A stretch of DNA of 61,899 bases, the filler included, from Deltaproteobacteria bacterium (GTDB taxonomy: Bacteria; JAEEML01), in NCBI GenBank assembly GCA_016283195.1. It is 6 parts of 6 records of this genome, joined end to end, with 100 filler letters (N's around TTAATTAATTAA, not from the genome) between each part and the next. Parts side by side here need not be neighbours in the genome. Positions count along the whole stretch, not along the records: positions 27,747 to 41,823 come from JAEEML010000072.1; 5 more parts are not named here. One strand, 5' to 3'. The stretch's first letter is position 1. Each line of letters opens with the position of its first letter. Of this stretch, positions 3,354-51,651 are shown piece by piece. A program made the position numbers and the translations under genes. The notes beneath the pieces were generated by a model. It worked only from the letters and a program-made list of their open reading frames with translations. It searched no databases and was not told the DNA's origin.

Positions 3354-4024
3354 AGCCAAAGCGCGCCGCTATAAGGGAGCGGAGTAGCTCCTTTCTTACT
3401 TTGCCCGGACGGGGCGGAGGCGGTTTTACGCTTTTAGAGACGGTGGTGGCTCTCGCCATTTTGGCTATTTCTCTGAGCTCGCTTTTAACTTCCAATGCTT
3501 CATCGGTAGATGTTATCGGCCGCTCGCGCGACCTTACCGTGGCCACACTTTTGGCTCAGAGCAAATTTATCGACATTGAAGAGCACTTAATAGACGAAAA
3601 ATTCAAGCAGGGCACAGAGAGCGAAAAGGGTGATTTTAAAGACGAAGGCTGGCCCGATTACAAATGGGCCTACGAAGTGCGCGAAATATCGGTTGATCTT
3701 TTGGATTTTAGCCAGGGAGTGGAAAATCTCATCCCCGGAGCGGCCGATATGGAAGATGAGGCCAAAGATGTCATGGAGGCTTCGGTTGACGGCATTATGG
3801 GCACTTTGGGCCCCATGGTTGACCCCTTTTTAAATGATGTGGCCAATTCTTTGCGCCTTATTTATCTTACGGTTACCTGGCCGCGTGGCCGTTATTACCA
3901 GAGCGCTTCTTTTAGCCGCCTGGTGACTACGCGCGATTATTCCTTTGCCCCGCTTTTAGACGAAATGACTAAAGGTCTGGAAGATTCAGCTAATACCAGC
4001 CAAAATCAGGGGGTACTAAGGTGA
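3350..4024 (+). CDS. gspI: Minor pseudopilin GspI-like
   Basis: GFTLLETVVALAIL motif; ATGA overlap with previous gene. Confidence 0.75.
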   Translation: MKPKRAAIRERSSSFLTLPGRGGGGFTLLETVVALAILAISLSSLLTSNASSVDVIGRSRDLTVATLLAQSKFIDIEEHLIDEKFKQGTESEKGDFKDEGWPDYKWAYEVREISVDLLDFSQGVENLIPGAADMEDEAKDVMEASVDGIMGTLGPMVDPFLNDVANSLRLIYLTVTWPRGRYYQSASFSRLVTTRDYSFAPLLDEMTKGLEDSANTSQNQGVLR

Positions 4025-21267: not shown

Positions 21268-21367
21268 NNNNNNNNNNNNNNNNNNNNNNNNNNNNNNNNN
21301 NNNNNNNNNNNTTAATTAATTAANNNNNNNNNNNNNNNNNNNNNNNNNNNNNNNNNNNNNNNNNNNN
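21268..21367. other. Artificial contig linker
   Basis: N run around TTAATTAATTAA (stops in six frames). Confidence 0.98.
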
Positions 21368-27646: not shown

Positions 27647-27746
27647 NNNNNNNNNNNNNNNNNNNNNNNNNNNNNNNNNNNNNNNNNNNNTTAATTAATT
27701 AANNNNNNNNNNNNNNNNNNNNNNNNNNNNNNNNNNNNNNNNNNNN
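27647..27746. other. Artificial contig linker
   Basis: N run around TTAATTAATTAA. Confidence 0.98.
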
Positions 27747-28318
27747 CCGGCGATTATGCCCTTCTGCATGGCTTCCGGCCCACTCTGGGTTATAGCGTAA
27801 GGGTCGCGCAAAATGGCGGCCATAAAGTCAAAAAGGCGCTCCTCGCCTTTAAGCACCTCTTGCAACATGGGCAAAAGCAAAGAAACATCCACAGAATTAA
27901 AATAATCGTGAATATCCAGCTTCAGGGCATACATGGCATTTATGCGCGGGCGGCGCACTAAATAGCGCAGCGCATCTTTGGCACTCTTGCCACTGATAAA
28001 AGAATAGAGATTTTTGGCAAAAAGGCTGTCGTAGCGGTGGAGAGCATGGCCGTAAAAGCGCAAGAGTTCATTTTCGGCCTGGGGAAAAGCAAAAACCGCC
28101 CGTTTGCGATCGGTGCCCTTTTTGTTTAAAAGAATCCTTTGCGGGTGCGGGAAAGAAAGCCCGGCCGCTAAATTTTCTAAAATGGGTAGATATTGCTTTT
28201 CGTCAATAAACTTGCGTAGATAGTGCTCTTCGCGCTTGGTGAGATGGCCACTTTCCAGCACTCCGGCATAATATTCTTCCCAGGCCTCCGCGCCAAATGC
28301 TCTGCCATATATGTCCAT
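27747..28318 (-). CDS. Reverse transcriptase, N-terminal part (3' truncated by gap)
   Basis: K..TDRKR (RT1), NLYSF (RT2), LKLDIHDYFNSV (motif A), KGIIAG at the motif B position; YxDD lies beyond the gap; GGAG RBS. Confidence 0.85.
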
Positions 28319-28336
28319 CTATACTCCAAATTGCGC

Positions 28337-28371
28337 AAAAAAAGCAAAAGCCCGTGCCAGGCACGAGCTTT
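28337..28371 (-). terminator. Intrinsic terminator between the candidate ncRNA and the RT start
   Basis: AAAGCTCGTGC-CTG-GCACGGGCTTT then TGCTTTTTTT on the minus strand. Confidence 0.7.
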
Positions 28372-28377
28372 CACTTT

Positions 28378-28500
28378 AAGCAGCGGAAATATTTAAAAGT
28401 TTTCCGATATTCGGAAACCTGTACCGGGTGATACTCAATAGGCCACATGCACGGCCCGCCTTGTCGGCGCTAAGTATTCAGCTGCCCCCTTTGCATGTGC
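28378..28500 (-). ncRNA. Candidate RT-associated structured ncRNA
   Basis: Hand-folded nested stems, three hairpins and an 8-nt pseudoknot-type complementarity, directly upstream of the RT. Confidence 0.55.
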
Positions 28501-28515
28501 ATAAGCATCCGCCGC

Positions 28516-29016
28516 TCATCCCATAAGCGCTTTGTTAATGCGGTCCACCACAAAGCTCTCTTTATTTTCATAGGGAGAATAGATAACTACATATTTTATA
28601 TTGTGATTTTTACAAATAATGGGCGCCTTTTTCGAGGCCTTCTCTTTGGTAATAGCCACGGCCAAAACCGGCTTTCCGTCTTTATTAAAGAGAAAATCAA
28701 GGGGCTTAAAAAACTTGCTGGCACCTGGCTCAATTTGAGTCATGGGCACATGTTCCTGAATGGTATATTCCGAAAAATTGCGCTCGATAATGTCTTTAAA
28801 GTAGGCATGACTGCGGTTAAAATCTTTAGTATAATCAACGCCATTAATGAATATGCGCCCATTTTCGCGGACCACATTCTGCGCTTTTTTCGGCGGCAAG
28901 GATTTACCGGACGCCGCCGTTTTTGCCGCCCCGGAGGCTCCCCCACCCTTTTTGCCTTTGGTCGCCGTGTAAATCACAAAAAGAACAATCGCCGCAATTA
29001 TAATTACTTTTACCAT
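28516..29016 (-). CDS. Membrane-anchored protein with DUF2726-like (restriction-endonuclease-fold) domain
   Basis: N-terminal TM; EHVPM...KPLDFLFNKDGKPVLAVAI pattern; co-oriented with the RT. Confidence 0.55.
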   Translation of the reverse strand: MVKVIIIAAIVLFVIYTATKGKKGGGASGAAKTAASGKSLPPKKAQNVVRENGRIFINGVDYTKDFNRSHAYFKDIIERNFSEYTIQEHVPMTQIEPGASKFFKPLDFLFNKDGKPVLAVAITKEKASKKAPIICKNHNIKYVVIYSPYENKESFVVDRINKALMG

Positions 29017-29244
29017 TTTCTGCCTCGGCAGCCAGTTTAGAAAAGCCGCGAAAAGTCATATTAAATGGGCCGCCAATTAATGTCAATCACCCTTTTTAGG
29101 CTAAATTATTTGTTTTTTCGCGGCTACCGAAAAAAGATGAACATTTTTTTAAAAAACCTCTTGACAGCCCTTTTTTGGCGCTTACTTCAAAGGCGTGGTT
29201 GGAAGATCCGGCGGGTGCCGGGTCACGAAAATAGGAGGTATGTT

Positions 29245-29694
29245 ATGAGTCTCAGGTCTTCATTAATGCGTGGTTCGATTTTCGATGAACTGGCAGCTAT
29301 GCAGCGCGAGATGAACCGCATCGTGCGCGCCGCGGAACAAGGAGCACCTTTGCCATTCAAAGCCTTCTCAGAAGTATATCCGCCAATCAATATTTCCGAG
29401 ACCGCTGAGGGCTATGAGCTGGAATGCGAATTGCCCGGTTACAGCATGGATGACATAGAGCTCACTGTTCAAGGTGACACCCTGACCATCAAGGGCAAAA
29501 AAGAGGCCGAAATGCCGGAAGACGGCAGTATTCACCGCCAGGAACGCCGCTATGGCTCCTTTAGCCGTAGCCTCACCCTGCCCGCCGCCGTCGATGTGGA
29601 AGCCGTGAGCGCCAAATTGGCCAACGGCCTGCTCTTGGTGAATTTGCCCAAGAGCGCAGCCGCAAAACCGCACAAAATTGCTATTAACGCCTAA
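29245..29694 (+). CDS. Hsp20/alpha-crystallin small heat-shock protein
   Basis: YPPINISET, ELPG, ERRYGSFSRSL, NGLL; AGGAGG RBS before ATG 29245. Confidence 0.93.
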   Translation: MSLRSSLMRGSIFDELAAMQREMNRIVRAAEQGAPLPFKAFSEVYPPINISETAEGYELECELPGYSMDDIELTVQGDTLTIKGKKEAEMPEDGSIHRQERRYGSFSRSLTLPAAVDVEAVSAKLANGLLLVNLPKSAAAKPHKIAINA

Positions 29695-29713
29695 GGACGA
29701 AGAGGAGAATATC

Positions 29714-30106
29714 ATGAGCGAGTTAGCTAATAATGAGAATATGAATATGACTACTTCTGCTGAAGGCACCCACAGCGGCCCTTATTTTGAGCCCAGAGTG
29801 GATATTTACGAGACGGAAAAGGCCCTGATTCTTTTGGCCGATTTGCCGGGCATTGGCGAAGATGATATCGACATCGATCTCAATGACGGCGAGCTGACCA
29901 TCCTCGGCAAGCAAAAGAAGGATGCCGCCAGCGGCAAATTGCTGCTGGAAGAATTTGAACATGGCAATTTTATTAGAAAATTCACGCTGACCGAGCGCAT
30001 CGACCAGAGTAAAATCCAAGCCGAGATGAAAAACGGCGTCTTAAAGCTCACTCTGCCGCTGGTAGAAAAGATGGCCCCGCGCAAGATTGTCATCAATAAC
30101 GGGTAA
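29714..30106 (+). CDS. Hsp20/alpha-crystallin small heat-shock protein
   Basis: PRVDIYET, ADLPG, NGVLKLTLP; GAGGAG RBS. Confidence 0.93.
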   Translation: MSELANNENMNMTTSAEGTHSGPYFEPRVDIYETEKALILLADLPGIGEDDIDIDLNDGELTILGKQKKDAASGKLLLEEFEHGNFIRKFTLTERIDQSKIQAEMKNGVLKLTLPLVEKMAPRKIVINNG

Positions 30107-30288
30107 AAACTACTGGCCGCCACACTAACTAATTACTGTTAAAATATCAATTTAACCGCCTAATTTCACTGCAATTTACAACATTCTAAAAACTCAGAAC
30201 CGCTACAGAACGCGGAAACCTATTGAAACTAAACAAGGTTATTTGCTATGAAATGTACGGAACAACAGTGAACTGTCATGGGGGTTTT

Positions 30289-30948
30289 ATGAGCCAGGAA
30301 ATCCACTTCAAACAATATACACCAAACGCGAACTACTATACGCCGATTCCTATGTTCACCCCTTACCTGAGAGTATGTGGCCAGGGCGTCGTGCGTCAAA
30401 ACGACCTCACCAATATCAACATGTGGCCTGCCACTTTTGAACCCGGAAATTACACAGCAATCGAGTTCGATAGCGGGATTACCGGTGCCAAAGCCGGCTT
30501 CTTAGAATCTTTTTATCATTTAGAGAAACTCATTCTGAGTGAATCTGTCCAAAGCATTGATGATACCAAAGAATTATCCGAAATGCTGACGAATAACCAG
30601 GTTATTGTGCGCGGCACGTTTGACACTTTTGCCGAAGAATTTGCGCATTTGCATCATCTACGCTTCGTTCATGCCAATATTGATATAGCGAATTCCTCGA
30701 ATCAATATGAAACCGATGTATGGACTCTTCGTTTTGAGGATAACGGCACACCATATTTACATTGTAATGCCTTTGGACAAGGTGGCTTTATGGGTGGCGA
30801 ACAGCGATCCGAACTTCCCGATGGCATATTTGATAACTGCACTATAGAAAAATTTGCAGAATTATTCGGAAAGGGTCTAACCGAACAGATACTCCAAAAC
30901 AAACCATTACAGCGTTTTTTACAGCGTATGAATTTGGGGAAACACTAA
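30289..30948 (+). CDS. Hypothetical protein (one LRR-like segment)
   Basis: Long ORF with LEKLILSESVQSI; start uncertain (30223-30289). Confidence 0.6.
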   Translation: MSQEIHFKQYTPNANYYTPIPMFTPYLRVCGQGVVRQNDLTNINMWPATFEPGNYTAIEFDSGITGAKAGFLESFYHLEKLILSESVQSIDDTKELSEMLTNNQVIVRGTFDTFAEEFAHLHHLRFVHANIDIANSSNQYETDVWTLRFEDNGTPYLHCNAFGQGGFMGGEQRSELPDGIFDNCTIEKFAELFGKGLTEQILQNKPLQRFLQRMNLGKH

Positions 30949-31053
30949 GCGGACAAATATACGACCGGCTACCTGTACTTAGGTGGTGGCAATGCGTCTA
31001 TGATCAACCTCTTCAAGGATAACGCTTTTTCCGTGCGCTGCCTCAAGGACTAA
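30949..31053 (+). pseudogene. Orphan C-terminal tail of a Fib_succ_major (FISUMP)-like domain
   Basis: Hand translation ...GYLYLGGGNASMINLFKDNAFSVRCLKD*; the rest of the domain is absent. Confidence 0.7.
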
Positions 31054-31059
31054 AGCTGA

Positions 31060-31198
31060 GCAGCCCGCCGCAGGCGGGTAGCCAGCACGAGAGTGAGCGT
31101 AGCGAACAGGGTGCCACCTAGCCGGGAGGCCAGGAAACCGGCCGCAGGCCGTTAGCCGCCGGGTGAAACCCGTTAGGGTGGGTCCGGCAGCAACTATT
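31060..31198. repeat. GC-rich REP-like hairpin cluster
   Basis: GCCCGCC-GCA-GGCGGGT, GAGCGTAGCGAA, GGCC-GCA-GGCC, CCC-GTTA-GGG. Confidence 0.55.
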
Positions 31199-31233
31199 CC
31201 GCCGAGTTTGAGAGCAACTGAGCCGCGCCGCAC
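31199..31233 (+). repeat. 35-bp direct repeat, copy 1
   Basis: CCGCCGAGTTTGAGAGCAACTGAGCCGCGCCGCAC, identical to 32034-32068. Confidence 0.9.
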
Positions 31234-31325
31234 CGAGCCTTGCATATCAGTCAAATTCAGCTCTGAATTATTACTGTTAAATGTCACAGAACTTTGCTAT
31301 AATTAGTCAGATATTGGAGGTGCAA

Positions 31326-31541
31326 ATGTCCATTACCACCGCAGAATTACAACAAAATTTAGCCAAATACCTGATGTTGGCGGCAACAGAGCAGATTCTT
31401 ATCACCCAAAACGGGCGCACGATAGCCATGCTGTCAAATCCCAATCAAGATAGGATTGAAACCGCCACATCTCTCTTCGGTGTTCTTCAGCCCGATACCA
31501 CTTTGGAAGAATCACAGGTAGAAAGATTAGCGCAAATATGA
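31326..31541 (+). CDS. Phd/YefM family antitoxin
   Basis: ITTAELQQNLAKYL...ILITQNGRTIA; GGAGG RBS; ATGA overlap with the toxin. Confidence 0.85.
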   Translation: MSITTAELQQNLAKYLMLAATEQILITQNGRTIAMLSNPNQDRIETATSLFGVLQPDTTLEESQVERLAQI

Positions 31542-31963
31542 AAATTCTGCTTGATACTTGCGTTATTATTGATGTTTTACAAAACCGCGAACCATTTGCC
31601 CATGACGCTAAAGCGCTATTTTTAGAAATAGCCAAACGAAATGTCATAGCCTGTATTACAGCAAAATCTGTCACTGATATTTATTACCTCACCCACAAAC
31701 AAACACACAGCGATGTTCAGACAAGATTAATTCTGCGGAAAATATTTACTCTCTTTGATGTTATAGACACCCTGGGCCTTGATTGCATTAATGCGATGTC
31801 CTCCCCAATAAATGACTATGAGGACGCCGTAATGTCAGAAACTGCCCTCAGAAACTCTGTTGATTACATAGTTACTCGCAATGAAAAAGACTATTCACAT
31901 TCAAAGGTTAGAGTTCTCTTACCGAAAGAGTTTCTTAATTTACTGCTGTTAGACCAAAAGTAG
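31538..31963 (+). CDS. PIN-domain toxin
   Basis: ILLDTCVIID, DYEDA, IVTRNEKDY. Confidence 0.88.
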   Translation: MKILLDTCVIIDVLQNREPFAHDAKALFLEIAKRNVIACITAKSVTDIYYLTHKQTHSDVQTRLILRKIFTLFDVIDTLGLDCINAMSSPINDYEDAVMSETALRNSVDYIVTRNEKDYSHSKVRVLLPKEFLNLLLLDQK

Positions 31964-37588: not shown

Positions 37589-39484
37589 TCAATATAAACT
37601 ACACACACCGGGCATGGTGCTCTCGGTATCGCGTTCACAATGATAAGACAGCTCAGTATTGGCATCGCAGTCGTTATTATCCATACATTCAGAGCCTTCA
37701 CCGCCGCTCACGCAAATGCCGGAAGTATTCTCATCTGGTTGCATACAGTGGTGGCCGCTACCATCTTCTTTATGATCGCAATCACCGTCATCATCGCAAG
37801 GCGAAGCTACCGATTCCGGGTTGTTTGGATCTACCACTCCACCACTCACACACATTTTAATTGAAAGCATACAATGGTTACTTTCTTTGCAATCGCTGTC
37901 ATCATCGCAATCGCAGCGCCCTGTCCCGCTAGTGCATTGATTATCCGGCTGATTTTTATCATTATGAGCGCCGTCAACACAGGTAGATGTGCTAGCCCGG
38001 CAATATCTTTGAGTAACTTTTCCTTCACTATTAACTAATTTGCAATCATCATCATCATCGCATGGTGAATTTGTTTTGGCATCAACACAGCTATGAGTGG
38101 AAGCACGGCAAACTTTAGAATCGTCGCAATCGTCATCATCGTCACAATCAGCACCGACAATCCCGCTAACACATTTATTTGTAGAAGCACGGCAATGATT
38201 ACCAACATCACAATCGGCATCATCGTCACAGGAGTCGTCCACCCGGCCACCGACACAAATACTTTGTGATTGCCAGCAAAAATTGCCATCATCACAATCG
38301 CCGTCGTCATCACAAGGTGAGGCTTCACGATCATCTTTCGCTATGCCGCCGTGAACACATTTATGAGTGGACAAGCGGCACCAATTATCTTCATCACATT
38401 CGCTGTCGGTATCACAATCGGAAGGTTCGTCTCCATCTTTACCCCAGCCGCCGCTGACACATAAATTCGTCGATTTCCGGCAATGATGGCCAATATTACA
38501 ATCACCATCATCATCGCACTCTGTCCCGAGAGCGCCGCTCACACACTTTTTGGTAGAAGCACGGCAGAACATAGGAGCCGCTTCGGCATCGGTATTGCAA
38601 TCATCATCGGTATTGCAATCCAAAACAGGCGGATTAGGCGGAACAATCGGGTCATCGGAATTGGCATCAGAGTTGCCGTCGGGATTCTGAGCCGGATTAT
38701 CGTCGGAATTGGCATCGGAGTTGCCATCGGAATTACTGTCATCAATCCAGTCTTCGATTGTCTTATTCACCACACAGCGGCTGTCTTCGCAATGGAAGCC
38801 TGTTAGACACTGGCGGCGATTTTGGCAAACGGTATAGCAATGATCGCCATTGCAGGCAAAGCCGTTACAAAAAGTCGGAGCCGGAGCAGCCGGCGGGCAG
38901 GAACCATCACTGACACAAGCGATAGCCACTGTTTCGTAACCATCCTGGCAACTGGCGGGTGAACAGGTTAAAGGCTCCTCGGGCAGATTATAAACACACT
39001 TGCCATCTTTACACTTTTTGTCCCAGCAGGAAGCGCTGCCGGAAGGCACATTATTACACTGACTATCGTTATAACACTCCACACATTCGCCGTTATAACA
39101 GAGGCCAGAAGCGCATTTAGTACCATTTAAAGCATTTTGGTAATGACAGAAAGGCTCACCGTTTTCTACCGCGCAAGTGCCGTTTATTTTGCACTTATTT
39201 TTGCCTTCATTAAGCGGGCATTCCATGCCGTTACATTTGCCCATACAATTAGCGAGGCAATGCGGGCAGGAGTGATAAGTGGCTTCATAGCGACACTCTT
39301 TATCTTCATTATTGCAACTGCCTTCGGCGGCATAAGTAATATAAGAAGCGTCGTCGGCGCTACATTCGGCTGCGGGAGGGGTATCACAAGTTTTGTGGCA
39401 CTCTTTATCCTCACATGAACTGAGTAGCGGCAAAAATAACGTCACAGAAAACACATAAAGGTAATTAGCAAATTTAGCTTTCAT
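37589..39484 (-). CDS. Cys/Asp-rich repeat lipoprotein
   Basis: LSSC lipobox; about 10 C-DDD.DC...CR.ST..CV.G units; GGAGG RBS. Confidence 0.8.
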   Translation of the reverse strand: MKAKFANYLYVFSVTLFLPLLSSCEDKECHKTCDTPPAAECSADDASYITYAAEGSCNNEDKECRYEATYHSCPHCLANCMGKCNGMECPLNEGKNKCKINGTCAVENGEPFCHYQNALNGTKCASGLCYNGECVECYNDSQCNNVPSGSASCWDKKCKDGKCVYNLPEEPLTCSPASCQDGYETVAIACVSDGSCPPAAPAPTFCNGFACNGDHCYTVCQNRRQCLTGFHCEDSRCVVNKTIEDWIDDSNSDGNSDANSDDNPAQNPDGNSDANSDDPIVPPNPPVLDCNTDDDCNTDAEAAPMFCRASTKKCVSGALGTECDDDGDCNIGHHCRKSTNLCVSGGWGKDGDEPSDCDTDSECDEDNWCRLSTHKCVHGGIAKDDREASPCDDDGDCDDGNFCWQSQSICVGGRVDDSCDDDADCDVGNHCRASTNKCVSGIVGADCDDDDDCDDSKVCRASTHSCVDAKTNSPCDDDDDCKLVNSEGKVTQRYCRASTSTCVDGAHNDKNQPDNQCTSGTGRCDCDDDSDCKESNHCMLSIKMCVSGGVVDPNNPESVASPCDDDGDCDHKEDGSGHHCMQPDENTSGICVSGGEGSECMDNNDCDANTELSYHCERDTESTMPGVCSLY

Positions 39485-39663
39485 AGTAACCTCCTTCAGC
39501 AAAAGCACTTGCGCATTTTAGCAACCGGCGAATAAGTTGTCCATGCTTTTTTTTAGACACAAAAACATTTATTTCAATATTGCTATTAATGTCTAACGAG
39601 CTCCTTGAAATCTCTAAACAAAGCCTTTACAATTGCTGCGGATATTTTGCCAAGGAGGGCACC

Positions 39664-41823
39664 ATGTATATCCGCAAGACCAACACCATTTATGCAATAA
39701 GCCTCTTAACTGTCACGCTCCTTGCCTGTAGCAAAACACCGCCGGAGGCTGCCAAAACCACCATCCCGGAGGGTTCGCCTTGCACCAACAGCGATGCCGT
39801 TGTCTGCGAGAGCGGCACAACTTGCTATAGCGATGGCTTTTGCCGCAAGATGTGCCAGGTTTCGGAAGATTGCGCTCCTGTTCAACAATGCTATGGCGAT
39901 GTCTGCCTGGCTGTGGCCACTCCGCTCTGTACCAGAAACGAAGATTGTCAAAAGAACGTGCCACAGTGCGTGAATGTGGGCTCAGCTAAATGTGTGGCCG
40001 GAAATTGCGCCTACACCAACGAGCCACAAAGTAAATCCTGCGATGATAACAACACCTGTACAATAAATGACCATTGCGATGGCAAAGGTGGCTGCTTCGG
40101 CGAGGCCGTTATCTGCAATAATCCACCGGCTACCTCCTGCAACGATGCCGATGACACTTACATCAGCTATGCTGCCACCGGCACTTGCAAAGACAATGAT
40201 GGCCAAACTGAATGTGTATATGAAAAAAGCGAAACATCATGCGCAAGTTGCCGCGAAAACTGCTTGCACAGATGCGATGGAGTTGTCTGCCCCGCCAGTG
40301 CCGATGGTTGTCAGCTCGGCTCTTGCGACCCAACAAGTTTCTTAGAACCTCCCTGTACCTTTAAAAATGTTGAAGACGGTACTCTTTGTAGCACCTCTGA
40401 ATTTGACGGCCGATGTATAAGCGGCTCTTGTGCAGAATGTGATGCCAACTCTGAATGTTCCATCGGAGAGCAAGAATGGCCCAGCTGCTTTGCCGCTATA
40501 TGCTCAGATAGCAAAAGATGCGAAGTAATCCCAACAGCCGGCGAAGCTTGCGGAAATATTTGTAAAAATGGCATTATGTATGCCACTGGCAGTTGCGCTG
40601 CCGATGGTAGCTGTGATGCCAATACAGATAGCTGCGGGGTCTATACCTGTAATCAAGCTGGTAGTGCTTGCCTCACCTCCTGCCAAACCAACGATGATTG
40701 CATTGAAACTCATATTTGCTTTGAAAATGCTTGTATTGAATCAAATCTCATTCCCAACGGCACAACCGGCTGCACCAATAATGCAGAATGTCGCAACAAT
40801 CACTGCGACACTTCAACCGTTGGCCCGGAAACCGGCCGTTGCTGTAAAGGCGATGAATGTTGCGACGAGCGCGCCGATTGCCCCGCCCACACCTATTGCG
40901 ACAATGACAAATTTGAATGTGTTACCAGCGTAGTAGGCACAAGTTGCCAAAGCGATAACGACTGTGCCGTTGGTAATTTCTGCCGCGAGTCCACCAAACA
41001 ATGTGTAAGCGGAGATAATGGCACCGGTTGTGATGATGCCAGCGACTGTAAAAGCCAAAAATGTCGTGCTTCCACTCACGTTTGCATTTCCGGCGATGTA
41101 GGTTCATCCTGCGATGATAATAATGATTGCATATTAAATCATTGCCGTCCGTCCAGTCGCACCTGCGTTTCCGGCGAAAAAGGTTCTTCATGCGATAACG
41201 ATAGCAACTGCAATACCAATTTAAACTGCGTCGGCTTCATTTGCGTAACTGGCGCCAATGGCTCAACCTGTACCAAAGATAGTGAATGCCTCTCCAACCA
41301 TTGCCGCCTGTCAGAGCACAAATGCGTCAGCGGCGAAGTAGACGCCGGTTGCGATGACGACAGCAACTGCAATTCCGATAACCACTGTATTGCTTCCAAA
41401 CATATTTGCGGTGGCGGCGGAAAAGGTGATTTTTGTGATGACGACGGCGACTGCGACAGCGGCCATCATTGTCGTGAGTCAACCCACCTGTGTGTGGGCG
41501 GCGGAGTTGGTGATCTCTGTGACGACGACGGCGACTGTGACAGCAATATATATTGCCAAAAAACAACTCACAAATGTGTTAACGGTGGCATTGGCGACCC
41601 CTGTGACAACGACGGTGATTGTAGCGGCGGTACTGCCGCCGGCTTCAAAAACCACTGCCGGCTGTCAACCCATGTGTGTGTGGGCGGCGGCGAAGACGAC
41701 CCGTGTGACGATGACCAGGACTGTGATGAAGGATTTTTCTGCCGCCTCTCCACCAATAAGTGTGTAAGCGGTGAAACAGGCTCTCTTTGCGATGATGAAG
41801 GCGACTGCGCCAACAGCACCTCC
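39664..41823 (+). CDS. Cys/Asp-rich repeat lipoprotein (3' truncated by gap)
   Basis: LLAC lipobox; about 11 units of the same repeat; GGAGG RBS. Confidence 0.8.
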
Positions 41824-41923
41824 NNNNNNNNNNNNNNNNNNNNNNNNNNNNNNNNNNNNNNNNNNNNTTAATTAATTAANNNNNNNNNNNNNNNNNNNNN
41901 NNNNNNNNNNNNNNNNNNNNNNN
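41824..41923. other. Artificial contig linker
   Basis: N run around TTAATTAATTAA. Confidence 0.98.
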
Positions 41924-48800: not shown

Positions 48801-48900
48801 NNNNNNNNNNNNNNNNNNNNNNNNNNNNNNNNNNNNNNNNNNNNTTAATTAATTAANNNNNNNNNNNNNNNNNNNNNNNNNNNNNNNNNNNNNNNNNNNN
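48801..48900. other. Artificial contig linker
   Basis: N run around TTAATTAATTAA. Confidence 0.98.
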
Positions 48901-51551: not shown

Positions 51552-51651
51552 NNNNNNNNNNNNNNNNNNNNNNNNNNNNNNNNNNNNNNNNNNNNTTAAT
51601 TAATTAANNNNNNNNNNNNNNNNNNNNNNNNNNNNNNNNNNNNNNNNNNNN
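51552..51651. other. Artificial contig linker
   Basis: N run around TTAATTAATTAA. Confidence 0.98.

Follow-up and report, generated by a model that had tools for sequence, protein, structure and literature searches.

The locus described here is a self-contained minus-strand module made up of a gene for a COG2852/Vsr-fold accessory protein, an RT-5-type non-coding RNA (ncRNA) and a UG26 reverse transcriptase (RT), and we consider the identity of these three parts highly probable. It lies within a window of 61,899 nucleotides, the whole stretch of DNA analysed, which joins six parts of a Deltaproteobacteria bacterium assembly (GCA_016283195.1). The start of the ncRNA coincides with the stop codon of the accessory gene, and on its 3′ side lie a terminator and then the RT ribosome-binding site. 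An initial annotation of this DNA missed the 166-aa upstream ORF as part of the system. Both main parts (the RT-5 RNA and the UG26 RT) are already known kinds and the window's copy is divergent and truncated in the assembly; as regards the window alone, what is gained is mainly annotation. Linking UG26 with an accessory gene that is almost always present and with a compact RNA of about 132 nt, whose pseudoknot and closing helix covary, provides a ready three-part system for tests in the style of DRT2, DRT9 and DRT10.

Reverse transcriptase and accessory protein

The RT gene (27747-28318, minus strand) encodes an N-terminal fragment of 190 aa, running through motif A (DIHDYF) to KGIIAG. Its ORF opens at an ATG at 28318 and is cut by the linker at the contig join (27647-27746; N runs and TTAATTAATTAA), hence only about 190 aa are visible, as the initial annotation had stated. 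The RT is incomplete in the assembly because the contig ends: locus L100 is identical to 27747-31315 of the window, with the same terminal base, and tblastn found the C-terminal part nowhere else in the window. Against PADLOC, the fragment matched RT_UG26 with an E-value of 1.4e-53 (profile positions 3-189 of 398), the runner-up models being generic RT (1.9e-8) and Cas1_IIIb (2e-8). A full-length relative of 402 aa that is 90% identical to the fragment, P0001, matched RT_UG26 at 9.7e-151; its best named-group match after UG26 and generic RT was UG17, the DRT10 RT (2.7e-26), and RVT_1 is its only Pfam domain. By these profile matches the RT falls in the named group UG26 of the Class 2 UG/Abi RTs, replacing the unassigned class of the initial annotation. 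The same annotation had looked to a YxDD motif as a check, and P0001 carries YADD; the window's ORF stops before motif C. Both DIHDYF and Y.RY.DD are invariant across 37 RT homologues. No close RT was found in the PDB by sequence, the best match being 8bgj_A at 2.7e-19.

Other RT types were tried and rejected. For a group II intron with a maturase-type RT, TIGR04416 gave 25.4 bits where its cut-off is 300, and no group II Rfam family matched within 27747-29300 at E up to 10. For a diversity-generating retroelement, a pair of template and variable repeats was sought: no direct repeat of at least 35 nt was found near the RT in L035, L081 or L004, nor in the window's contig for this locus except for coding repeats 9 kb away.

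The accessory gene (28516-29016, minus strand) encodes 166 aa and matched the PADLOC model RTasCOG2852 (E 3.1e-6). Its product comprises a hydrophobic N-terminal helix, a disordered linker and a C-terminal Vsr/DUF559-like (COG2852) domain. The AF2 model has a pLDDT above 90 at residues 66-166, and VIA-align placed it closest to 3hrl_A (Z 9.4, rmsd 2.6, 87 aligned), followed by I-Bth0305I (3r3p_B, Z 8.8) and Vsr (1cw0_A, Z 7.7). As modelled, the domain has the Vsr/DUF559 (COG2852) PD-(D/E)XK fold. Foldseek against the PDB gave no match for the protein at E up to 1e-3, and Pfam gave nothing significant. Its atlas look-alikes were DUF2726/DUF559 proteins (0.90), which we note as a lead only.

Residue conservation was assessed in 50 of about 130 homologues (alignment A5). 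F81, V90 and R159 are invariant and E88, N151 and Y155 are kept in at least 90% of sequences, with no conserved set of Asp or His residues in the domain among these 50. Judged by sequence, nuclease activity of the accessory protein is doubtful, because E88 is the sole acidic residue kept in at least 90% of sequences.

Identity and fold of the RT-5-type RNA

Counted across its closing stem P1, both outermost bases included, the ncRNA is 140 nt long (28378-28517, minus strand), and 59 nt separate it from the RT start downstream. It aligned to the whole of the Rfam RT-5 model (RF03026; positions 1-104 of 104) at 40.7 bits (E 5.1e-6), below the gathering score of 45.7 bits, hence we file it as a divergent, sub-threshold relative of RT-5. 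Family models built here scored it at 68.6 bits (E 4.7e-10) and 56.6 bits (E 1e-9), the window being in the seed alignment of model R1. RT-5 is one of the motifs RT-1 to RT-19 of Weinberg et al. 2017 (PMC5737381), and no printed link between RT-5 and UG26 was found in the literature searched, supplements excluded. The initial annotation had described an RT with a cis-encoded structured RNA of unassigned class; the pairing of RT and RNA stands, and the RNA now has a family.

The RNA is near-universal among relatives of this RT. RT-5 scored above the gathering score at 16 of 17 relatives' loci (67-98 bits), and nhmmer found an RT-5-like RNA at 76/80 genome loci and 71/80 metagenome loci, these 160 loci being drawn from the roughly 350 relatives found (151 + 202). 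At the 13 remaining loci family model R2 found no RT-5, at least five of them having less than 170 nt upstream of the RT. R2 matched all 100 chosen sources; the RNA-model searches took in 100 of 118 distinct RNA sequences, with the last 18 in list order left out. Whole-genome searches found one RT-5 copy each for L003 and L024 and none in the genome of L001.

The 202 nt upstream of the RT fold at -76.5 kcal/mol, compared with -60.9 ± 4.1 for 200 shuffled sequences (z -3.76), none of which folded as well; the strong fold noted in the initial annotation is thus borne out. It consists of the closing stem P1, a short 5′ hairpin, helices P2-P4, a 7-bp pseudoknot, the P5 hairpin and a single strand, J5/1. 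The 5′ arm of P1 (GAGCGGCGGA, 28508-28517, minus strand) starts inside the TGA stop codon of the accessory gene and pairs with the 3′ arm (UCCGCUGCUU, 28378-28387, minus strand) at 10 of 10 positions (28517-28508 with 28387-28378). An alignment built without fitting to P1 shows the stem 90.1% paired across the family, with eight of ten pairs changed on both sides, and the window's P1 is a compensated, G+C-rich version.

The pseudoknot is real and family-wide. It joins the 5′ leader (ACAUGCA, 28492-28498, minus strand) to the P4 loop (UGCAUGU, 28445-28451, minus strand), with 7/7 pairs in the window (28498-28492 with 28451-28445). Three of the seven pairs covary across the family and are never unpaired (GC 65, AU 30, UA 1; CG 95, UA 2; CG 95, AU 2), and the window itself has two compensated pairs, A:U for G:C and A:U for C:G. 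In an alignment fitted to neither P1 nor the pseudoknot, 93.7% of cells were paired, against 43-55% when the partners were slid, and the observed pairing values were reached by none of 500 shuffles.

The core, aligned to the family model (28426-28489, minus strand), comprises P2 (28489-28485 with 28430-28426; 4/5 pairs), P3 (28482-28475 with 28440-28433; 7/8 pairs, and 8/8 in the nearest relative, L081), a lineage-specific insert hairpin (CGCC-GACAA-GGCG, 28469-28457) and P4 (GGCC/GGCC, 28456-28453 with 28444-28441; 4/4 pairs). These core helices are 91-98% paired across the family, with covariation. P5 follows as a 7-bp hairpin, UUUCCGA-AUA-UCGGAAA (28401-28417, minus strand, from sequence and folding), whose inner four pairs are 96.2% paired in the family and all covary, in an alignment fitted to that structure. 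Between P5 and P1 lies J5/1 (ACUUUUAAAUAUU, 28388-28400, minus strand; family consensus UUYAAAR...YU), which contains the longest unpaired stretch of strong conservation (U 95, U 98, A 89, A 99, A 94; n = 100). By eye, the P5 loop (AUUU) and J5/1 (AAA), both invariant, could form a second pseudoknot, a candidate only. The hairpins proposed initially (P4, P5 and the insert) and the pseudoknot were all recovered. Two proposed stems were not: the 3′ arm of the outer stem GGCAGC/GCUGCU pairs further 5′ in the 100 relatives, where P1 is the true stem, and the bulged 10-bp stem is P3 in a shifted register.

The window RNA shares with Rfam RT-5 the helices P2-P5, a conserved CAGC, the UGCAGG-type loop, the GUA junction and adjacency to an RT. 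It differs in the extra hairpin in the variable loop, in its two changed and compensated pseudoknot pairs, in a P1 that is G+C-rich instead of purine/pyrimidine and in a separate hairpin terminator; P1 and the 5′ hairpin fall outside the 104-position Rfam model.

Expression signals and gene order

A promoter-like site, TTGACA-17-TAATAT, lies upstream of the accessory gene (29058-29086, minus strand; 10/12 in a consensus scan, a pattern match only). Between the RNA and the RT, sequence and folding identify a putative intrinsic terminator (28336-28372, minus strand), a G+C-rich hairpin of 10-12 bp (28372-28346) with a U run, and L081 has the same element with its stem bases changed. A Shine-Dalgarno GGAG follows (28324-28327, minus strand), 5 nt 5′ of the ATG. 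Terminator and ribosome-binding site agree with the initial annotation, and its suggestion that the RT is expressed by read-through is plausible given the terminator separating RNA from RT. At least six U within 9 nt after P1 occur in 62/100 relatives.

Gene order was counted in 100 non-redundant relatives. In 91 of them the RNA is immediately preceded by a COG2852/Vsr-fold gene of about 175 aa (median gap 10 nt), and in 95 it is followed by the RT (median gap 14 nt). The RT comes first in L002, L005, L012 and L101, where the RNA lies 0.7-1.9 kb beyond it and behind the accessory gene. An accessory homologue also precedes the RNA in the genome of L003, on the RT's own contig and some 4.4 kb beyond the RT, and in that of L024, where the RNA is in L161, which does not overlap L024. 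Nine RNAs keep the RT with no accessory gene seen (L006, L007, L011, L014, L017, L022, L044, L048 and L094), an absence that is only apparent in L007 and L014, which have less than 220 nt of upstream sequence. L011 and L094 have a TATAAT 7-8 nt before P1; like the terminators and the U runs after P1, this speaks for a discrete RNA.

Neighbouring genes vary between loci. Among the 120 nearest flanking ORFs there was no defence-island signal, since each of 37 PADLOC families was matched by a single member; these were 120 of 148 picked ORFs, with 24 longer than 700 aa and four others left out.

Mestre 2022 (PMC9226505) places UG26 in Class 2. Our loci agree with that account in the COG2852 accessory gene and in RVT_1-only relatives of about 400 aa, and differ in frequency: the accessory gene is co-located in 9/35 members there, whereas a homologue precedes the RNA in 91/100 relatives here. 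No UG26 ncRNA is described in the article, whose supplements may hold more, in contrast to the near-universal RNA found here.

Proposed mechanism and rival explanations

By analogy with characterised systems, the locus is most likely a DRT-like RT-ncRNA module whose RNA would serve as scaffold and template. Transcription of all three parts would start at the promoter ahead of the accessory gene and would mostly stop after the RNA, giving a discrete and abundant ncRNA, and read-through would give a little RT. The RT would hold the RNA as a scaffold and copy a short internal template repeatedly, producing repetitive cDNA by synthesis that is probably protein-primed, as in the Class 2 systems DRT2, DRT9 and DRT10. 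The accessory protein would act on or sense the resulting nucleic acid, and the whole module would probably provide anti-phage defence. As a best overall explanation, a three-part, RNA-templated and probably defensive module has a somewhat better than even chance of being right. Its elements differ in strength: the RNA is likely a discrete partner of the RT, templated repetitive cDNA is suggested by analogy at slightly under even odds, and J5/1 as the template is a tentative and rather doubtful proposal, made because of the Class 2 logic in bioRxiv 10.64898/2026.06.29.735271. Literature searches found no experiment on UG26 or RT-5.

The analogy draws on several shared features. Class 2 RTs are described as copying short ncRNA templates framed by two stems (bioRxiv 10.1101/2025.10.16.682844; 10.64898/2026.06.29.735271), and the ncRNAs of UG2 and UG28 as exceeding the RT mRNA more than 1000-fold in abundance (PMC9226505). 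In common with DRT10 (UG17), DRT9 (UG28) and DRT2 (UG2), the module has a Class 2 RT without a fused effector (here from P0001), a cis-encoded structured ncRNA of about 130-280 nt beside the RT, and a short unpaired strand with a helix on either side (here J5/1, between P5 and P1); some of those systems also have a small accessory or effector gene. It differs in that P0001 matches the UG17 model far less strongly than UG26 (2.7e-26 vs 9.7e-151), the RNAs share no Rfam family, a Vsr-fold protein takes the place of SLATT as partner, the RNA sits between two genes, and there is no Neo-like ORF. A Neo-like endless (circular) ORF across the P1-enclosed loop was rejected: interior lengths modulo 3 are 41/26/31, and any open circular frame occurs in only 34/98, with inconsistent frames. 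A candidate A-B-A′ template repeat in J5/1 (column 284 equal to column 297 in 88/97) tracks clades, and the UU...UU sequence around J5/1 is low-complexity.

No template can be read from the RNA sequence, which favours a rather unlikely alternative in which the RNA is a scaffold or activator only and RT DNA synthesis is untemplated or protein-templated (Class 1-like), or in which the RNA just assembles an RT oligomer. The most conserved bases of the RNA also fall in helices or junctions, as is typical where proteins bind, and published accounts describe Class 1 systems that synthesise DNA without a template and, in DRT9 and DRT10, oligomers assembled by RNA. However, all characterised Class 2 systems (DRT2, DRT3a, DRT9 and DRT10) are described as ncRNA-templated, and the best named group for P0001 after UG26 is that of the DRT10 RT. 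We consider it very unlikely that the RNA is a cis-regulatory leader, an attenuator or riboswitch controlling the RT by termination with no role in trans. Its place in the RT 5′ region ahead of a terminator would suit such a leader, as would P1 and a U run 6-20 nt before the RT start in many relatives, but a search of Rfam to E 10 gave no riboswitch, and the RNA found downstream of the RT in L002, L005, L012, L101 and L003 is not tied to the RT leader.

The adjacency of RNA and accessory gene, kept even where the RT has moved, raises the comparably slight prospect of a 3′-UTR or antitoxin-like RNA that stabilises the accessory gene or neutralises a toxic nuclease-fold protein, with the RT secondary. 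When the accessory gene is present, the RNA always follows it directly (the 91/100 relatives plus L161 and L162); against this stand the nine RNAs that keep the RT without it, L007 and L014 among them with their short upstream sequence, and the lack of a conserved catalytic set in the accessory domain. A retron-like element, with P1 in the a1/a2 role and msDNA primed from an RNA 2′-OH, is extremely improbable. The 5′ and 3′ ends of the RNA do pair, as in retron ncRNAs, and a retron role for many RT motifs was a speculation of Weinberg et al. 2017 (PMC5737381), but retron RT models matched the fragment at E 0.0038-0.033 (PADLOC) and 0.036 (NCBIfam), against 1.4e-53 for UG26, and no retron family was matched in Rfam.

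A telomerase RNA core comprises a template, a pseudoknot, a core-enclosing helix and a template boundary element. The RT-5-type RNA resembles it in layout only, having a closing helix, a pseudoknot and a single strand next to a boundary hairpin, and its elements come in a different order. A more far-reaching reading, which we think unlikely, is a bacterial telomerase-like RNP in which P1 would be the core-enclosing helix, J5/1 (UUYAAAR..YU, with UU at both ends) the template and P5 the boundary hairpin, alongside the pseudoknot. Priming from a conserved C-terminal tyrosine region (LVHEYY), the RT would synthesise tandem repeats of about 9-10 nt complementary to J5/1, and this DNA would be read out or processed by the Vsr-fold protein, anchored in the membrane. 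Class 2 UG RTs have been proposed as relatives of TERT (bioRxiv 10.1101/2025.10.16.682844), and a pseudoknotted RNA partner in Class 2 UG/Abi RTs would bear on that proposed kinship with telomerase.

A truncated UG26 reverse transcriptase

The reverse transcriptase (RT) ORF, as read from the sequence, runs on the minus strand from an ATG at 28318 to 27747, with a GGAG at Shine-Dalgarno position (28327–28324, minus strand). Directly past its end lies a linker consisting of an N run, TTAATTAATTAA and a further N run. Five such linkers occur in the window (21268–21367, 27647–27746, 41824–41923, 48801–48900 and 51552–51651), so the stretch strings together at least six contigs, and truncation of the RT ORF reflects a contig boundary rather than a mutation. 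Gene neighbourhood across the linker points is meaningless. A contig from the metagenome collection (L100) is identical to window 27747–31315 and stops at the same base, and the missing part of the RT was not found elsewhere in the window.

The initial annotation left the RT in an unassigned class, yet the 190-aa fragment matched the PADLOC model RT_UG26 (E = 1.4e-53, profile positions 3–189 of 398). The next PADLOC models were generic RT (1.9e-8) and Cas1_IIIb (2e-8); Drt9 scored 4.1e-5 and retron RT models 0.0038 or weaker. On the fragment, Pfam RVT_1 did not reach its cut-off (20.5 vs 29.6 bits), nor did a group II maturase model (25 bits, cut-off 300). P0001, a full-length database protein (402 aa) 90% identical to the fragment, matched RT_UG26 at 9.7e-151 over positions 5–395 of 398; its second-best named group was UG17 (DRT10, 2.7e-26). 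RVT_1 is the only Pfam domain of P0001, and YADD is present. UG26 is a named Class 2 group of the UG/Abi RTs, and Class 2 RTs are described as having no extra known domain (Mestre et al. 2022, PMC9226505). Membership of the retrons, of the group II introns or of the DGRs was rejected in each case on a defining feature that was tested.

Motif A (DIHDYF) and motif C (Y.RY.DD) did not vary among 37 aligned homologues, and one tyrosine was at least 90% conserved in a C-terminal LVHEYY stretch, which is followed by a variable tail of 5–30 residues (P0001 residues 390–402; family alignment A7). The placement of LVHEYY near the C-terminus is reminiscent of DRT9 and DRT10, for which C-terminal priming residues have been reported.

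Identity and fold of the RT-5 RNA

Upstream of the RT, a minus-strand match to Rfam RT-5 (RF03026) at window 28385–28502 spans the entire 104-position model (E = 5.1e-6) and scores 40.7 bits against a gathering score of 45.7. RT-5 belongs to a series of motifs adjoining RT genes, RT-1 to RT-19, for which a possible role in retrons or DGRs was proposed (Weinberg et al. 2017, PMC5737381). Passages of the UG/Abi survey describe ncRNAs for UG2, UG3+UG8, UG28 and UG27, and none for UG26 (PMC9226505). We kept 80 of 151 RT relatives on one-genome-per-species contigs (L001–L080), predominantly Lachnospiraceae, other Bacillota and Bacteroidales MAGs from rumen and gut, and 80 of 202 on metagenome contigs (L081–L160). 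Of 17 loci scanned, 16 had RT-5 above its gathering score (67–98 bits), and an nhmmer profile detected RT-5-like sequence in 76/80 genome and 71/80 metagenome loci, always on the same strand as the RT. Covariance models were run on 100 of 118 distinct RNA sequences; model R1, whose seed alignment included the window, matched 98 of these 100 and model R2, with a fuller structure, all 100. The nearest relative of the window is L081, the contig of P0001, with RNA ~95% and adjoining coding DNA 84% identical. Both RT-5 and UG26 are known kinds, of which the window holds a divergent, sub-threshold and assembly-truncated copy.

The 202-nt upstream region folds at −76.5 kcal/mol compared with −60.9 ± 4.1 for shuffles (z = −3.76), none of 200 shuffles being as good. 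For the 140-nt RNA, the nested family structure reaches −46.9 kcal/mol against an MFE of −52.4, with the pseudoknot uncounted. Pairs were counted on alignment A3, which was fitted to the core stems P2–P4 only and is hence unbiased for the pseudoknot and closing stem. In A3, 93.7% of cells were paired, compared with 43–55% when partners were slid, and 0/500 shuffles matched the observed pairing values. Seven pairs make up the pseudoknot, in which the 5′ leader pairs with the P4 loop: pair 1 (GC 65, AU 30, UA 1), pair 2 (CG 95, UA 2), pair 3 (CG 95, AU 2), the invariant pairs 4 (UA) and 5 (GC), pair 6 (CG 84, UG 9, other 4) and pair 7 (AU 47, GU 40, other 10). The three covarying pairs were never unpaired, and both A:U exchanges at pair 3 come from the window and L081. 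In the window, ACAUGCA (28498–28492) pairs with UGCAUGU (28451–28445) at 7/7 positions. Together with the covariation in A3, this shows that the pseudoknot suggested in the initial annotation is real.

A 10-bp closing stem (P1) lies beyond the Rfam model: its 5′ arm immediately precedes the leader and its 3′ arm follows the P5 hairpin. In A3, P1 was 90.1% paired and both sides had changed at 8 of 10 pairs; in A4, a fitted alignment, it was 97.4% paired. Its 5′ side is purine-rich and its 3′ side pyrimidine-rich in most members, whereas it is G+C-rich in the window, L081, L007 and L014. Window P1 (minus strand) pairs GAGCGGCGGA (28517–28508) with UCCGCUGCUU (28387–28378) at 10/10 positions, beginning within the TGA of the upstream ORF, and replaces the previously drawn outer stem GGCAGC/GCUGCU. 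Similarly, the bulged stem drawn earlier is P3 in a shifted register; the family register gives 7/8 pairs in the window and 8/8 in L081. A variable loop accommodates the CGCC-GACAA-GGCG hairpin as an insert; in L007 and L014 another insert takes its place. P1-to-P1 length had a median of 132 nt (range 117–222, n = 100 relatives' RNAs). Large insertions in two further RT-5 copies (L012 6004–6225, with 222 nt from P1 to P1, and L063 3770–3948) indicate that the variable loop has room for sizeable inserts. Pairing in P0, a short 5′ hairpin, was weaker (75.7%, fitted alignment). The P5 loop (A-UUU) and an AAA in J5/1, the single strand between P5 and P1, are highly conserved and complementary (A4 columns 253–259 and 285–287); they could form a second small pseudoknot, both sides being invariant.

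Module layout and the accessory protein

A 166-aa ORF (28516–29016, minus strand) matching the PADLOC RT-associated COG2852 profile (E = 3.1e-6) is preceded by a TTGACA-17-TAATAT site (29086–29058, minus strand). A homologue of this accessory gene ends directly 5′ of P1 in 91/100 RNA sources (median gap 10 nt), and the RT begins directly past P1 in 95/100 (its first in-frame ATG at a median of 14 nt). A co-located COG2852 (YcjD/Vsr-like) gene was reported for 9 of 35 UG26 members (PMC9226505). The accessory gene was undetected beside 9/100 RNAs, in two of which the upstream DNA was too short to tell.

The RT lies upstream of the RNA in 4/100. In this RT-first subclade, between one and three further genes separate the RT from the accessory gene, which the RNA follows (L002 3992–6403, L005 3980–7315, L012 and L101); L003+L162 and, probably, L024/L161 also belong here. 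An extra gene in L005 (5262–6362) encodes a 366-aa zinc-ribbon protein (weak Pfam match, E = 1e-4) that looks membrane-associated by eye. No RNA was found in the fetched flanks of L003 and L024, but whole-genome searches located one RT-5 in each, each after an accessory homologue. That of L003 is on the RT's contig, ~4.4 kb past the RT; that of L024 was found elsewhere in the genome. As the RNA stays with the accessory gene where the RT has moved, the accessory gene is the RNA's constant neighbour, and the RNA is not simply a leader of the RT.

Accessory-less L011 and L094 possess a TATAAT box 7–8 nt before P1 (~3790–3801 and ~2798–2809, respectively), which would place the transcript start at the RNA 5′ end and suggests that the RNA has its own promoter in these loci. 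At its other end, at least six U fall within 9 nt past P1 in 62/100. The window lineage instead has a separate terminator, a 10–12-bp G+C-rich hairpin with a U run (hairpin 28372–28346, minus strand), kept in L081 with changed stem bases. Either signal fits a discrete RNA ending past P1, with the RT probably expressed by read-through.

An AF2 model of the accessory protein, built on 50 homologues, had pLDDT > 90 over residues 66–166 and a low-confidence N-terminal part. Foldseek gave no match at E up to 1e-3, and its weak rows were nearly all restriction-endonuclease-fold proteins. VIA-align comparison over 48,161 chains ranked highest the endonuclease-like 3hrl_A (Z 9.4), the I-Bth0305I catalytic domain (Z 8.8) and Vsr (Z 7.7); RAP-domain proteins reached comparable Z values. 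This predicted-structure ranking agrees with the COG2852 label. Only F81, V90 and R159 are invariant, with E88, N151 and Y155 at least 90% conserved; with so few conserved residues, nuclease activity is only putative.

Possible template and genomic surroundings

Parts, order and RNA fold come from the loci themselves; the mechanism we infer from relatives. The Class 2 RTs DRT2, DRT3a, DRT9 and DRT10 are reported to use a cis-encoded ncRNA with a short internal template that is copied repeatedly, framed by two RT-anchored stems and often showing A-B-A′ microhomology, with priming from a C-terminal RT residue in DRT9 and DRT10 (10.1101/2025.10.16.682844, 10.64898/2026.06.29.735271, 10.64898/2026.10.08.757509). 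By analogy, the UG26 RT would repeatedly copy a short internal template in the RT-5 RNA. J5/1 (28400–28388, minus strand; consensus UUYAAAR..YU), which starts and ends with UU, is the one long, conserved unpaired stretch of RT-5 that has a helix on each side, and is a tentative candidate template to which we give a rather low probability. Clade structure confounds an A/A′ identity signal in J5/1. A sequence test gave no support for a DRT2-like endless ORF spanning the loop that P1 encloses.

In the literature searched we found no RT-5/UG26 pairing, P1 closing stem or near-constant accessory gene. These modest additions prepare an uncharacterised Class 2 system for experimental work.

Among the relatives, the 120 flanking ORFs nearest the module were diverse housekeeping genes, suggesting the module moves as a unit. 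Each PADLOC family among them was matched by a single member, and no defence-island signal was detected in these 120 ORFs. Neighbours on the contig that carries the module in the window are two Hsp20 genes, a Phd/YefM–PIN pair and large repeat proteins. The pair is a type II toxin-antitoxin system 2.3 kb from the module (31281–31963, plus strand), in which an 86-aa Phd/YefM-type antitoxin overlaps a 141-aa PIN_3-domain toxin. Two large divergent ORFs without a Pfam match (37589–39508, minus strand, and 39580–41871, plus strand, the latter running into the contig end) are made up of tandem repeats, each 84 nt (28 aa) long, in which Cys and Asp codons abound.
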